Shown here in pieces: positions 4,684-43,526 of a DNA stretch of 64,000 nt (its first letter is position 1; each line of letters begins with the position of its first letter). Source of the DNA: an uncultured Prevotella sp. Lineage in GTDB: Bacteria; Bacteroidota; Bacteroidia; Bacteroidales; Bacteroidaceae. The notes under the pieces are model-generated. The model did no database searches and was not told the origin of the DNA. It was given only the letters and a program-made list of their open reading frames with translations. The position numbers were made by a program, and so were the translations under genes. Location: the NCBI GenBank assembly GCA_905236815.1, contig CAJOPE010000041.1, forward strand, positions 15,593 to 79,592, read 5' to 3'.

Positions 4684-6000
4684 ATGGATATTTCAGAATT
4701 CTATAAAATCTATCAGGAACACCCTGTCGTTACTACCGACAGCAGGAACTGTCCTGAAGGGAGTATTTTCATTGCCCTGAAAGGTGCCTCTTTCGACGGA
4801 AACAAGTTTGCCGAGGCCGCACTTGAGAAGGGTTGCGCCTATGCAGTAGTGGATGAGAAGGAGTATTGCAAGGAGGGTGATGAGCGCTTTATTCTTGTGG
4901 AAGATTGTTTGACAACTTTCAAGGAACTTGCGCGAGAGCATCGTCGCCAGTTCGACATTCCTGTCATCGGTATCACAGGTACGAATGGAAAAACTACTAC
5001 GAAGGAACTCATCTCGGCCGTTCTTGCCGAGAAGTTCAATGTAATGCACACTGAGGGAAACTTCAACAATGATGTGGGTGTGCCTAAAACTCTGCTTCGT
5101 CTTGCTCCTGAGCATCAGATTGCTGTTGTCGAGATGGGTGCTAGTCATCCTGGCGACATCAAATGTTTGGTGGAATATGTCGAGCCAACTTGTGGTATGA
5201 TTACCAATGTGGGGCGTGCGCACCTACAGGGCTTCGGAAGTTTCGAGGGCGTGAAGAAGACCAAAGGCGAACTCTACGATTTCCTCACTGGCCACAACGG
5301 TCTGCTATTCCTCAACGAGAGCAACCCAGACTTAGTGGAGATGGCTCAGCAGAGAGACTTCGAGCGTGTCATCACTTATGGCAAGGAGGGCGAGGCTAGC
5401 ATCGACGGAAAGGTAATCAGTTGTGCTCCTTTCCTCAAGTTCGAATGGACCGACCTCACTTCGGATGACACTAAGGTGAAGACTTATGAGGTGGAGACTC
5501 ATCTCATCGGCTCTTACAATATCGACAATATGCTGGCTGCTATCACTATCGGCTTGCACTTTGGAGTTTCACCTGAGCAGATCAACCATGCTTTGGAGAA
5601 CTATATCCCTAGCAACAACCGCAGTCAGCTTACTGTAACTGCCAAGAACAAACTGGTGGTAGATGCTTATAATGCCAATCCATCGAGTATGGCTGCTGCC
5701 ATCGAGAACTTCAAGGTGATGGATGTTGACAACAAGATGGCAATTCTCGGCGACATGCGTGAGTTGGGCGAGGCTTCTGACGAGGAACACCAGAAGGTGG
5801 TTGACAAGCTGAAAGAATATGGTCTCACCAACATCTGGCTTGTGGGCGAGGAATTCGGCAAGACCAACACCGATTTCCGCAAGTTCAACAATGTGGAAGA
5901 GGTGAAGGCTGAAATCGCCAAGGTACAGCCTGAGGGATGCTATATTCTCATCAAGGGAAGCAACGGTATCAAACTCTTCGAATTGCCAGAGTTACTCTAA
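4684..6000 (+). CDS. murF: UDP-N-acetylmuramoyl-tripeptide--D-alanyl-D-alanine ligase
   Basis: Mur-ligase P-loop [13 protein letters not shown] and MurF-like domain order. ATG 4684 preferred over track GTG 4678 (same frame). Confidence 0.9.
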   Translation: MDISEFYKIYQEHPVVTTDSRNCPEGSIFIALKGASFDGNKFAEAALEKGCAYAVVDEKEYCKEGDERFILVEDCLTTFKELAREHRRQFDIPVIGITGTNGKTTTKELISAVLAEKFNVMHTEGNFNNDVGVPKTLLRLAPEHQIAVVEMGASHPGDIKCLVEYVEPTCGMITNVGRAHLQGFGSFEGVKKTKGELYDFLTGHNGLLFLNESNPDLVEMAQQRDFERVITYGKEGEASIDGKVISCAPFLKFEWTDLTSDDTKVKTYEVETHLIGSYNIDNMLAAITIGLHFGVSPEQINHALENYIPSNNRSQLTVTAKNKLVVDAYNANPSSMAAAIENFKVMDVDNKMAILGDMRELGEASDEEHQKVVDKLKEYGLTNIWLVGEEFGKTNTDFRKFNNVEEVKAEIAKVQPEGCYILIKGSNGIKLFELPELL

Positions 6001-6066: not shown

Positions 6067-6828
6067 ATGAATTTAACAGAAGAACAAACCGAAAGATATT
6101 GCCGACATATCAAACTGAGGGAAGTCGGTGAGGAAGGTCAGAAAAAGATGCTCAACGCCAAGATACTCATCGTGGGTACTGGCGGTCTTGGATCGCCTGC
6201 AGCTCTTTATCTTGCTGCAGCTGGTATCGGGCATATCGGCATTGTTGATGCAGATGTTGCCGACTTGAGCAATCTACAACGACAGATTATTCACTCCACA
6301 AATGACATTGGCCGTCCAAAGGTGGAGAGTGCCAAGGAGAAAATGCTTGCCATCAATCCTTCCATCGAGATTACCACCTATCAGGAATTCCTTTCATCCG
6401 ACAACGCTCAAGACATCATCGCACCTTGGGATTTCATTATTGATGCAACAGACAACTTTACTGCAAAGTATCTCATCAATGATACCTGCGTGAAACTCGG
6501 CAAGGCATTCTCTCATGGAAGCATCCTTAGATTTAATGGGCAGACCTTTACGCATATTCCAGGTAGTGCCTGTTATCGTTGCTTATTCAAGGAGCCTCCT
6601 CCAGAGGGAACTGTTCCCAACAGCAAGCAGGCTGGTATTTTAGGTTCTGTAGCTGGAATGTTAGGCACAATACAAGCAACCGAGGCTTTAAAATATGTAT
6701 TGGGAATTGGAGAGTTGCTCACCAACCGTCTGCTCACCTTCGATGCACTCACGATGGAGCAAAACATCTTCAAAATAAAGAATCGTAGTGATTGTCCAAT
6801 ATGTGGAGTTTCCTCTCTTAACAAATAG
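6067..6828 (+). CDS. ThiF/MoeB/HesA-family adenylyltransferase
   Basis: Rossmann motif IVGTGGLGSPAALYLAAAGIG and two CxxC pairs (CYRC, CPIC). The stop codon TAG directly abuts repeat element A. Confidence 0.85.
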   Translation: MNLTEEQTERYCRHIKLREVGEEGQKKMLNAKILIVGTGGLGSPAALYLAAAGIGHIGIVDADVADLSNLQRQIIHSTNDIGRPKVESAKEKMLAINPSIEITTYQEFLSSDNAQDIIAPWDFIIDATDNFTAKYLINDTCVKLGKAFSHGSILRFNGQTFTHIPGSACYRCLFKEPPPEGTVPNSKQAGILGSVAGMLGTIQATEALKYVLGIGELLTNRLLTFDALTMEQNIFKIKNRSDCPICGVSSLNK

Positions 6829-6829
6829 G

Positions 6830-7120
6830 AAAAACATTTTTTCAAAAAAATATTTTATCCTTCATATCATTTATAACTAACTGGTGCATAGCGATTTCCT
6901 ATGAAGGAAGATTTTATCGTTTCTAGAAACATGTTGTTTTAGTGCAATAGCTTTCTTATTTAATAATGATATAAGCATCATGAAAAGAAACAAAGAAGAA
7001 AATCAATAAGATATCGCTCTATCTGAACATATAGAATTTTTACCTTCATAAGAACTCGCTATATTTCAGATAGTTACAATTGATATGAAGGATAAAATAT
7101 TTTTTTGAAAAAATGTTTTT
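6830..7120. repeat. nested inverted-repeat element, copy A (291 bp; arms 6830-6907 and 7043-7120; 135-bp centre)
   Basis: Perfect 40-bp terminal inverted repeat (6830-6869 vs 7081-7120). Each 78-nt arm is AAAAACATTTTTTCAAAAAAATATTTTAT + CCTTCATA + 33 nt + TATGAAGG. By hand count the two arms match at 69 of 78 positions. Confidence 0.9.
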
Positions 7121-7421
7121 ATCTTTTATATTTACAAAAACAAGTTTACCATACTATTTCTACCCCGCTCGCTGGGATTGCTCTCCCCGTTTACATAGAA
7201 TAATGAAACATTTCATCTTTTGCTGATAATTTACCTGCAAGATACTTGCTTGCTCGTGGCATACCATCTTTTTGATTTCCCCACAAGTGAGGGAGAAATG
7301 CTGAACAATAGTTTCTTGCTCTATTATGCAACAAACTCATTCCAACACCAAACGCTCACAACTATAGAGTATTCTATCTAATTAAGTATGTCTCGACTTT
7401 TTATCAAGTAGTCTTTGTCAT

Positions 7422-7662
7422 CCGATTAAGTCGATTTACTTTACAATTAAGCCGTTCTTGCAAGTCAATTAAGCACATCTTGCATGTCAATTAGGCCGTT
7501 CTTGATGGAGTATTAAGTCGTTTTAATTATTGAGAAAGCATTTTGTTTGCCAATTAAGAACTTCTTACTTTTCAATTAAAACCATTCTTGCTTATCAAGA
7601 AACCCATAAATGCTTTTCAATTAATCCTTCTTGCCTTTCAATTAAGTCTTTCTTGATCATGA
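7422..7662. repeat. degenerate tandem array, about 11 units of about 22 bp, consensus CAATTAAGnnnTTCTTGnnnn
   Basis: CAATTAAG-like heads at 7444, 7466, 7488, 7551, 7573, 7618 and 7639 (spacing 21-23 bp). More diverged units at about 7424, 7512 and 7596. Confidence 0.75.
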
Positions 7663-7711
7663 ATTCAGCACTAAATATAAACAGTAAAAATCTAAGGCAT
7701 AGATGAATTTT

Positions 7712-7772
7712 GTAAATGGGCCATTTACGGACCCTAAACAGTACATTTAGAAGACCTAAATGGTGCATTTAG
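7712..7772. repeat. 61-bp module of three 22-bp-spaced 17-nt palindromic units (REP/BIME-like), locus A
   Basis: GTAAATGGGCCATTTAC (7712), CTAAACAGTACATTTAG (7734) and CTAAATGGTGCATTTAG (7756). Confidence 0.8.
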
Positions 7773-7774
7773 AC

Positions 7775-7809
7775 AAAAACAAAAAAGCTTCTCAAAATTG
7801 AGAAGCTTT
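7775..7809 (-). terminator. intrinsic terminator after tRNA-Phe
   Basis: AAAGCTTCTC/GAGAAGCTTT 10-bp stem with a 6-nt loop, followed on the minus strand by a T-rich run (plus-strand CAAAAACAAAAAA). Confidence 0.75.
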
Positions 7810-8131: not shown

Positions 8132-8322
8132 TTTCCCCTAAATAGAGCAAAAGTTATCTGCTAAATCAACTTTAGCATAAACCTCTTAAAAGAGAACGTT
8201 ACAAACGTAATTCTAACTATTCCCATATTAGCTCGAAAAGACAAGAACCCTGTCGGCATTATCAAGTTTAGATAAACGAAAAAGATAAGTTTCAATCATC
8301 AGAAATGGAAGTTTATATAATA

Positions 8323-8414
8323 TCAAACGACCGTTTCATATTATATTAAACGACCGTTTCACATAATGTCAAACGATCGTTTCATGTAATGTCAAACGGT
8401 CGTTTAACATTATT
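8323..8414. repeat. four tandem 23-bp units, each with a 12-16 bp palindromic core T(C/T)AAACGnnCGTTT(C/A)A
   Basis: Units start at 8323, 8346, 8369 and 8392. The cores are AAACGACCGTTT, AAACGACCGTTT, AAACGATCGTTT (a perfect palindrome) and AAACGGTCGTTT. Confidence 0.85.
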
Positions 8415-25742: not shown

Positions 25743-26351
25743 GCTCAACTTTTTTAAATATGTGCCTTTTTAACTAAAAAAAACCTCAAAAAAGGTAATT
25801 TTGTGCACTTTTGGTTACCAAATGAACAAACTTGAGCATTCTCTAGCGGCTTTTCGTAAGACAAATCAAGTTTAATTTCCTTATCGTAACTGATTTTTAA
25901 CATGGCTACAATAAACTTAAAGCCAGCAAGCCTACAACAAACAAAAGGTTAAGTATTTTCATTGATAGAAAGCTCAATATTATCATACAAATCAAAAGAT
26001 TAAATTTTAAAGAATTACATAAATTCGTTTAACCGAATTCCCAAATCAGAAATCTATCAAGACGAATAGCATGCACGGAATTACAAAGATAAGAACTCTG
26101 TAATAACGAACAACTCTAATAAAAAAAACAGAAAATTCAAAGAACTCTCAATAAACATCTTACAAAAGCAAAAGCACAAGTTATTTTGTAAACAATATTA
26201 CCCTATAACCAACTAAACAAAACGAAATTGAACTTAATAGACAAACTAAGCTATATCAAACCTACTCCCAATAGTAAATCCTTAGGACTCATAATATCTA
26301 TCTTAACACTATTTCATAGGCTTTAGTCGATTAGAAAGCAGGAAAGCATTG

Positions 26352-26412
26352 CTATGTATGGCATTTAGAAGCGCTAAGTGGCATACTTAGGATGGCCAAA
26401 TAGGCTATTTAA
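26352..26412. repeat. same 3 x 22-bp palindromic-unit module, locus B
   Basis: CTATGTATGGCATTTAG (26352), CTAAGTGGCATACTTAG (26374) and CCAAATAGGCTATTTAA (26396). Confidence 0.75.
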
Positions 26413-26461
26413 CTTTACAACATCTAAAATCACAGCCAAATCTAACAACCCCCTAAATCAA

Positions 26462-26755
26462 GAAAACATTTTTTTTGAAAAAATATTTCTTCCTTCATAT
26501 TAAACATAATTATCTGTACAACAACGAGTTGCTATGAAGGTAAAATTTACCTAAGTCTCTTTTTGAAACTTAGAAGATTCAACGCAATCCCTATTTGCCA
26601 CATGAATAATTGAAAGTTTTTATATCATATCAAGAATAACACAAATATTCAACTTAAAAATCAAATTAAAAATTCACCTTCATAACAACTCACTATCAGA
26701 CAACAACTTACGACTGATATGAAGGAAGAAATATTTATTTTAAATTTAAGCACCA
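26462..26755. repeat. nested inverted-repeat element, copy B (left arm 26462-26540, right arm from 26677; outer right end decayed; 136-bp centre)
   Basis: Same arm architecture: CCTTCATA at 26492 and 26677, TATGAAGG at 26533 and 26718, loops exactly 33 nt. The right outer arm matches for only about 20 nt beyond the hairpin. Confidence 0.8.
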
Positions 26756-26833: not shown

Positions 26834-26866
26834 TTTCCCGTTTTTTTATTAAGTTTTATAAAAATT

Positions 26867-26892
26867 GTGTAGAAAAGTGGGGAAGTGTGGGG
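26867..26892 (+). promoter_or_regulatory. candidate MraZ operator: GTG(T/G) direct repeats at 10-bp spacing abutting the dcw promoter
   Basis: GTGT at 26867, GTGGGG at 26877 and GTGGGG at 26887, with a further GTGT at 26899. These lie immediately upstream of the -7 box at 26902-26909. E. coli MraZ binds TGGGN direct repeats with a 10-bp period in its own promoter. Confidence 0.5.
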
Positions 26893-26901
26893 AATTTTGT
26901 G

Positions 26902-43225: not shown

Positions 43226-43526
43226 AAAAACATTTTTTCAAAAAAATATTTTATCCTTCATACCAAGCATAACTTATTGATAATCAAAAGCTTCCTATGA
43301 AGGAAAAATATATGAAGATTAATTTTCAAGTTTAAAAAGAACGTTTTGTGTAATTAATGAATTCAAAATTGAAACGAATTAGGATGAAGGTCAATAACCG
43401 AAGAAAGAACTCATTAATTAGAAATGATTTTTAGAAAGCGAAAATTAACCTTCATAAGAACTATCACAATACCAACTAGTTACGTTCAATATGAAGGATA
43501 AAATATTTTTTTGAAAAAATGTTTTC
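43226..43526. repeat. nested inverted-repeat element, copy C (arms 43226-43303 and 43449-43526; 145-bp centre)
   Basis: The outer 37 nt of the left arm are identical to copy A. CCTTCATA at 43255 and 43449, TATGAAGG at 43296 and 43490, loops 33 nt. Confidence 0.9.

Follow-up and report, generated by a model that had tools for sequence, protein, structure and literature searches.

An intergenic family of foldback repeats with invariant stems and a fixed 33-bp spacer in an uncultured Prevotella-like gut bacterium

The window analysed here is a 64-kb stretch (64,000 nucleotides) of DNA from an uncultured Prevotella sp., and it carries three inverted-repeat elements, all of which are intergenic. 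Element A (6830-7120) begins at the stop codon of a ThiF/MoeB-like gene, element B (26462-26755) sits in a 1.2-kb spacer (1221 bp) upstream of mraZ, and element C (43226-43526) is found between the convergent genes yqeY and recO. The dcw cell-division operon is bracketed by B and C. The arms of the elements follow the pattern CCTTCATA-N(30-36)-TATGAAGG, which has six exact matches in the window (starting at 6859, 7043, 26492, 26677, 43255 and 43449), and the gap is always 33 nt. These six arms pair up into the three elements, with centres of 135 bp (A), 136 bp (B) and 145 bp (C). The features are given below in window coordinates; L130, L132, L138 and L140 are copies at other loci.

6825..7139, no strand: element A, whole unit, from the ATAGG overlapping the thiF-like stop codon and including 19 nt past the right arm that are common to L138
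6830..6907, plus strand: left arm of A (A/T palindrome 6830-6858, CCTTCATA 6859-6866, spacer 6867-6899, TATGAAGG 6900-6907)
6908..7042, no strand: centre of A, 135 bp, aligning with the L138 centre (74% across the whole element)
7043..7120, minus strand: right arm of A (CCTTCATA 7043-7050, spacer 7051-7083, TATGAAGG 7084-7091, A/T palindrome 7092-7120)
26338..26461, minus strand: B-type co-copied extra sequence, with a 34-nt core CCTAAGTATGCCACTTAGCGCTTCTAAATGCCAT at 26358-26391, common to L130 and L132
26462..26755, no strand: element B, with mraZ 183 bp downstream and a degenerate outer A/T part on the right
26492..26540, plus strand: core of the B left arm (stem-33-stem), pattern match
26677..26725, minus strand: core of the B right arm (stem-33-stem), pattern match
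43226..43526, no strand: element C, between yqeY and recO
43255..43303, plus strand: core of the C left arm (stem-33-stem), pattern match
43384..43390, plus strand: extra ATGAAGG inside the C centre, with a similar one in the L140 centre
43449..43497, minus strand: core of the C right arm (stem-33-stem), pattern match

The arm pattern did not occur once in 100 dinucleotide-preserving shuffles of the window, against the 6 matches observed. A repeat search of the window recovered both the arm pairs and three families of direct repeats, and arm complementarity was 88% for A, 79% for C and 74% for B. A profile HMM of the arms detected no further or degenerate arms in the 64 kb and none in ~18 kb of the same scaffold past both window ends, giving a copy density of 3 per 82 kb (window plus scaffold flanks). 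The pattern search, the repeat search and the gene context together bear out three intergenic inverted-repeat copies, which had been described in an earlier note made from the sequence of this DNA. Several details of that description are likewise accurate: the outer 40 nt of the two arms of A are a perfect inverted repeat, the outer ends of the left arms of A and C are identical (through the stem), and spacer positions T8 A9 A10, T12, T16 G17 and T30 T31 are invariant in all six arms.

The elements are not limited to the window. A stricter arm pattern applied to metagenome contigs returned 12 loci, 11 of them from one assembly (REGX01). Three loci match A, B and C as their orthologues (98-99% identity), a fourth is a chance match, and seven new two-armed elements were recovered at unrelated loci (L130, L132, L133, L135, L136, L138 and L140), which bears out the earlier reading as a repeat family and adds copies elsewhere. 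The search demanded one arm only, leaving the second arm of the new elements unconditioned, and in 7/7 of them this second arm has perfect stems and a 33-nt spacer. The fixed spacer length first noticed in six arms is therefore a property of all 20 arms of the ten elements, the unconditioned ones included, and all 20 have identical stems. Centres range from 113 to 159 bp and element size from 290 to 320 bp, with no ORF common to the copies. The genes flanking the paralogues are housekeeping genes (M3 peptidase, PfkB kinase, ABC ATPase, esterase and others), and the paralogue contigs have no coding homology to the window, so they represent other loci. Moreover, the copy beside the M3 peptidase is also found in WOLF17-1 metagenomes, which carry the species of the window; at least four element loci occur in the same samples as this species, which is consistent with one genome. 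In elements A and C, short-read (Logan) contigs break off after 24-30 nt of the element, as repetition of its initial k-mers would lead one to expect. Assemblies made independently in several projects contain these same elements. In a scan of a reference-genome collection with a variable gap, the matches listed are almost all chance ones, with gap lengths of 30-36 evenly spread. The elements are a real, lineage-restricted family of foldback repeats.

In the alignment of the 20 arms, the stems are invariant and the outer A/T block, AAAAAAATATTTYWT, is well preserved. When arms of different elements are compared, identity is 100% in the stems, 83% in the last 20 outer bases, 58% in the spacer and 60% in the inner flank, which is weakly kept with the consensus (T/A)A(A/G)A followed by a T-rich part. 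Fixed spacer positions are few in the 20-arm alignment (T1, T8 A9 A10, T12, T16 G17, T30 T31); A10, T16, G17 and T31 are invariant in 20/20 arms, T8 and A9 are kept in 19/20, and T12 and T30 in 18/20. The A/T near-palindrome is bounded on its outside by a third, degenerate TGAAGG; L138 has this motif intact, and there TGAAGGATAAAATATTTTTTCAAAAAAATATTTTATCCTTCA forms a perfect palindrome. The arm can therefore be written as TGAAGG-N30-CCTTCATA-N33-TATGAAGG. Additional copies of ATGAAGG are present in the centres of C and L140. Conservation is thus block-wise and not uniform across arms, loops and centre. The earlier note had turned such a pattern against a MITE; the blocks are confirmed by the four identity values above, but a MITE-type origin is compatible with them.

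The family is divided into sub-families whose members are 70-80% alike. Elements B, L130 and L132 are 79-81% alike over ~400 nt, centres included, while A and L138 are 74% alike and their centres can be aligned. The centre had been described as unalignable between copies, and positions 7 (A/G) and 33 (C/T) of the spacer as arm-specific in all of them. The former does not apply within sub-families and the latter is true only of A, B, C and L138 (4/10 elements); both statements arose because only three copies, from different sub-families, were in view. The accompanying idea that whole elements and not single arms were copied survives without the position 7/33 rule. At several spacer positions, arms within one element agree less often than arms between elements, which indicates that the elements are polar, possess two arm types and are copied whole. 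The limits of the copied unit are less sharp. A-type homology passes the right arm by 19 nt (to 7139) and B-type homology passes the left arm by ~120 nt (to ~26338), including an invariant 34-nt core, so that the arms are not necessarily its exact ends and, judged from these alignments, the true element ends are uncertain. The CCTAAGTATGCCACTTAGCGCTTCTAAATGCCAT block, situated ~60 nt outside one B arm, is invariant in L130 and L132, and its conservation exceeds that of the element. Rfam has no match for it, and it occurs once in the window. Among the elements found, there are no near-identical copies at different loci and hence no sign of recent movement.

Within the species, the A, B and C copies and the one at the M3-peptidase locus are present in every strain sampled in the same orientation, and no presence/absence polymorphism of elements was seen among these strains. 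Segregating sites, obtained from orthologous comparisons at four loci, amount to 17/264 in the spacers (6.4%), 14/552 in the centres (2.5%), 3/241 in the outer A/T parts (1.2%), 1/128 in the stems (0.8%) and ~71/2785 in the flanks (~2.5%, alignment-end artefact removed). Variability in the spacers exceeds that in stems plus outer parts (p=0.0004) and that in centres (p=0.01). The comparison of stems plus outer parts with centres plus flanks (1.1% vs 2.5%) is not significant (p=0.10), so the argument for present-day constraint rests mainly on the paralogue comparison. Furthermore, much of the spacer excess comes from a single event at the M3 locus, where two strains otherwise ~98.5% identical over 900 nt (L162:12164-12212 and L136:379-427) differ at 7/33 spacer positions while the length is still 33. 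Strain L162 also has a stem variant, CCTTCATT, in the other arm of this element. No donor for the replaced L162 spacer was found among the 20 known arms, and a simple inversion of this spacer fails to explain the 7/33 differences. Short-patch conversion from an unsampled paralogue and quasi-palindrome template switching are candidate explanations of the change.

The host is an uncultured Prevotella-like gut bacterium without a close sequenced relative. Outside the species, ThiF and MraZ have their closest homologues at 71-74% identity, the named ones belonging to Segatella or Prevotella. In three perfectly syntenic relatives the spacer between the acyltransferase gene and mraZ measures 401-607 bp and contains no arms, as compared with 1221 bp here, and alignment of the mraZ-upstream spacer with the relatives is confined to the gene-proximal 90-200 bp. 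Similarly, the stop codon of the M3 peptidase gene is not followed by an element in a relative where this protein is 88% identical. Empty sites, one of the checks proposed in the earlier note, thus exist at two syntenic positions, although the relatives' flanks at both are too diverged for the exact insertion junctions to be aligned. The elements were therefore gained in this lineage, an insertion supported by their absence at these syntenic sites. A relative without B has in its mraZ spacer a solitary A/T palindrome bounded by TGAAAG...CTTTCA (L157:9776-9842, nhmmer E=0.005); it resembles the outer module of the arm and could be a remnant, a precursor or a chance likeness. Four of the ten elements follow an intact gene, starting at 1-13 nt from its stop codon, and the contexts as a whole are heterogeneous, comprising 3' ends, 5' regions, and convergent and divergent spacers. 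The ThiF/MoeB-like protein in front of A (window 6067-6828) has 253 aa and most relatives 268-270 aa; its TAG stop lies within ATAGG, and the five bases just ahead of element C are likewise ATAGG. The idea that element A had truncated the thiF-like gene was rejected, as some relatives have C-termini just as short.

With confidence and doubt in about equal measure, we regard the family as lineage-specific, ~300-bp, non-coding foldback repeats of a MITE/REPIN-like kind, the arms of which are putative duplex-DNA recognition arrays for a protein. Such recognition by a protein appears, from sequence patterns, to be the most likely role of the arms. The element is a polar unit of arm, 113-159-bp centre and inverted arm, and each arm presents, in the inward direction, a degenerate TGAAGG, a 30-bp A/T palindrome, CCTTCATA, exactly 33 bp and TATGAAGG as a motif array on duplex DNA. 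The history is shown in part: having arrived between the genes of this Prevotellaceae lineage, frequently just past a stop codon, the elements diverged into sub-families and have since become fixed in the species. The arms may be recognised by a trans-acting DNA-binding protein, the likeliest candidate being the transposase or recombinase that spread the elements, presumably encoded outside the ~100 kb examined. The 33-bp spacer would serve as a length-constrained linker, the sequence of which drifts or swaps between copies. Upon read-through from an upstream gene, the two arms could pair into a hairpin of ~85 bp; as with Correia, ERIC and REP elements, this might end the transcript or stabilise or process its 3' end.

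A different view, rather unlikely in our judgement while deserving attention, is that the elements are cis-acting sites of the host, either operator-like or architectural arrays for a chromosomal DNA-binding protein or 3'-UTR elements. Host selection would keep them, as with REP/BIME, and they would no longer be mobile like transposons or would never have been so. Motif and spacing that are invariant in 20 arms while the rest has diverged by 20-40% are what such sites would display, and the same may be said of their occurrence in every strain sampled, the bracketing of the dcw operon by B and C, the location of 4/10 elements within 13 nt of a stop codon, and the failure to find either a transposase or a target-site duplication. 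However, the same syntenic positions are empty in the nearest relatives, the genomic contexts are heterogeneous, the elements co-occur with other repeat families in inflated spacers, and the within-species constraint on stems plus outer parts alone is not significant. It is a good deal less probable that the arms are binding platforms for a new Bacteroidales protein that reads the 8-mer CCTTCATA in an 8-33-8 plus A/T geometry, and that the elements are functional chromosomal sites. If this were true, they could be boundary or insulator sites (for example, the pair round dcw) or sites of a new recombination system, the 33-bp spacers would be exchanged between copies as cassettes, and the CCTTCA arrays of other Bacteroidales described below would share the recognition system.

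Structure offers another possible basis for the conservation. Every arm is a perfect 8-bp inverted repeat, and the fold with an 8-bp stem and a 33-nt loop, as RNA or single-stranded DNA, might itself be the functional unit, for instance as a recognition hairpin for a single-strand transposase or as an RNA motif. Strong internal spacer hairpins in the right arm of L136 (-21 kcal/mol) and the left arm of L140 (-17.3 kcal/mol) would suit this idea, as would T4 and A30 in both arms of L136 (A and T in most other arms), which could be one compensatory change. Nevertheless, it is very unlikely. RNAalifold on the 20 arms returned only the invariant 8-bp stem and no covarying pairs, so that the covariation test envisaged in the earlier note gave block conservation instead. 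The stem-loop fold amounts to just -5.6 to -6.6 kcal/mol, and shuffling the spacers alone while the stems were kept produced equally stable folds (mean z -0.25 for RNA and -0.39 for DNA). Within the full element the arms pair with each other and not with themselves, and a pure structure constraint would not predict a fixed loop length together with an invariant stem sequence. Rfam matches in the window at gathering score are tRNAs only, and nothing credible appears at E<=5-10 over the A and B regions. The "structured nucleic acid" of the earlier note is accordingly not borne out for single arms. Spacers within one element are 61% alike and those of different elements 58% (permutation p=0.2), so arm-to-arm pairing is not under selection in the spacers. 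Element A as a single strand does fold into one long hairpin (-102.9 kcal/mol, z=-14), which follows from the inverted repeat alone. Invariant sequence in both halves, a fixed distance and a free interior read as the signature of duplex-DNA recognition. Motif sequence and spacing are preserved and base-pairing is not, from which we infer that the arms are protein recognition sites.

Direct traces of mobility are scarce. Target-site duplications at a consistent offset were sought in the ten elements and none was found, and short ones could be hidden by the A/T-rich, blurred ends. No transposase, RAYT-like gene or recombinase is encoded in ~100 kb of this genome or adjoining any copy, and the genes annotated at the examined loci include no Y1_Tnp domain. 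The only tyrosine integrase seen (in L162) belongs to a separate integrative element 2 kb off. A partner IS with the same termini was found neither in the ~100 kb nor in plasmid, phage and viral collections. The lack of a transposase, recombinase or shared ORF remarked on for the three window copies extends to the genes next to the paralogues. Of the three outcomes that the earlier note had said would reduce the family to an ordinary MITE or chance palindromes, none was observed. Additionally, the arms contain no Bacteroidetes -7 promoter motif and the region of element A no canonical terminator. The spacers were rejected as guides, as they have no matches beyond 11-12-mers elsewhere in the window, and a link to the replication origin or terminus was rejected because GC skew follows gene orientation only.

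Invertons are common in Bacteroidales, to which the host belongs, and long inverted repeats flank a segment of 113-159 bp here; a centre flipped by a site-specific recombinase acting on the arms, with phase variation as the outcome, would fit this layout. Such flipping is scarcely credible, however. At the assembly level, the centre has a single orientation in every assembly (for A, L119-122, L131 and L159-161; for B, L139 and L141-143; for C, L134 and L148; for the M3 locus, L136 and L162-165). The motif TAnnTTTG, which the earlier note had failed to see in the three centres, is absent on either strand from all ten elements, including up to 150 bp inside them; no invertase is encoded in the ~100 kb, and the elements are often at gene 3' ends. 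Chance A/T-rich palindromes or an assembly artefact, for which the A/T richness of the outer part and nothing more could be cited, are dismissed in view of the empty shuffles and the recurrence of the elements in independent assemblies.

Literature searches on Prevotella MITEs, on Bacteroidetes REP elements and on the motif itself turned up no description of the element. Correia elements of Neisseria and ERIC/IRU elements of enterobacteria are 100-300-bp foldback repeats without a known transposase; they lie near genes and are co-transcribed, and their long hairpin can be cut by RNase III or affect mRNA stability. The present elements resemble them as foldback repeats near genes that fold as a whole into a long hairpin. 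Correia elements possess 26-bp terminal repeats, a TA duplication, an IHF site and outward promoters, whereas none of these was found here and there is no sequence similarity. Classical MITEs are similar in being small, non-coding, dispersed, delimited by terminal inverted repeats, and present or absent between related species. The family agrees with this description in its size (290-320 bp), its arms (74-88% complementary), its occurrence at at least 10 loci, and the existence of relatives without the element. It differs from classical MITEs in that no target-site duplication is detectable, no cognate IS was found, and the inverted repeats are unusually long and internally structured, with homology that can pass beyond them.

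REPINs and BIMEs pair REP sequences in inverted orientation and are mobilised by RAYT transposases (PMC3116915, PMC3337134). Like the present family, they consist of two conserved palindromic modules, inverted round a less conserved spacer, are non-coding, intergenic and often placed just behind genes, and are vertically inherited, long-lived and mosaic with other small repeats, without target-site duplication. However, the arms here measure 78-90 bp in comparison with their 20-40 bp, lack the GTAG or CGTC tag of REP/REPIN sequences, and form an 8-33-8 nested repeat with an unstructured, fixed-length interior. Moreover, no RAYT was seen here, and the copy number appears low (3 per 82 kb and ~10 in one metagenome). 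PINSR, a 188-bp repeat of Prevotella intermedia/nigrescens that has no terminal inverted repeats according to its authors (PMC4755523), is comparable as a lineage-restricted, intergenic, non-coding repeat in Prevotella relatives; by this description, identity with PINSR is rejected on length and architecture. The family is undescribed; in its workings it comes closest to REPIN, MITE and Correia-type elements, but it does not pass the tests that define each of these named families (target-site duplication, cognate IS, GTAG tag, RAYT).

Bacteroidales dominate gut microbiomes. To our knowledge, much work has been done on the interspersed non-coding repeats of Proteobacteria, Neisseria and pneumococci, and hardly any on those of this order. 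The family is a clear example of strict conservation of motif sequence and spacing combined with freedom to change in the intervening DNA. The fixed 33-bp spacer with cassette-like turnover is its most noteworthy feature, and the strict motif spacing predicts a protein partner measuring 33 bp. In practical terms, the elements break short-read assemblies at fixed points and inflate regulatory spacers, the mraZ upstream region being 2-3x longer than in relatives. Furthermore, a potential 85-bp hairpin is placed directly behind several housekeeping genes and may affect mRNA 3' ends.

Other small repeat families (X1, X2 and the B-block) adjoin several of the foldback copies, and this placement of several families side by side recalls the mosaic repeat regions of enterobacteria. 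Units such as TCTAAACCGACGGTTTACG, a 7-1-7 palindrome, make up X1, which is 90-99% alike between contigs (L138:1-160, L136:4918-5076, L130:3-100 and L135:6937-7051). In L130 and L138, 10-80 nt separate X1 from the foldback element, and it is frequently located at the end of a contig. X2 is a nested foldback of ~150 nt, CCCACTTGTGGGAGAG...GGGTATGCCACAAG...CTTGCTCGTGGCATACCC...CCCACAAGTGGGGG, at L135:5253-5418 and L136:5182-5337. Fragments of it occur at window 7249-7297 and L140:3333-3392, and X2 sequence is 100-200 nt from A, L135 and L140. The former fragment falls within a stretch of ~650 nt without a convincing ORF (window 7121-7779), between element A and the tRNA-Phe terminator, which is ~6% polymorphic between strains, above the coding flank. 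Further along, window 8317-8413 contains four copies of a 16-nt palindrome, TCAAACGACCGTTTCA, in a perfect-looking inverted array of 97 bp between tRNA-Pro and the 3' end of a comEA-like gene; its appearance is that of an array of regulator-binding sites or of a further small repeat. Just upstream of mraZ, GTGGGG-type repeats (aaaagtggggaagtgtggggaatt, window 26866-26900) are kept in all relatives and are probably the MraZ operator.

The integrative element 2 kb from the M3-locus copy (L162:14159-20556) carries genes for a tyrosine integrase, an AAA_14/DUF4143 ATPase, DUF6043, HTH_17 and a DUF3987 primase-like protein. An AAA_14/DUF4143 gene also adjoins the element in L130. A search of the L162 integrative element for a CCTTCA array detected none. 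Among the matches listed in the reference-genome scan, dense CCTTCA/TGAAGG arrays surround a stem-32/36-stem core at four Bacteroidales loci, two in a Prevotella sp. MAG (L006:~1900-2010 and L093:~4870-5020) and two in Phocaeicola sartorii (L019:~6645-6730 and L055:~1350-1440). Such arrays, which may represent a related recognition system, include three of the motifs as direct repeats with a 10-bp period, and the one in L093 is directly upstream of a BT4734-like/VapE primase gene of a mobile element.
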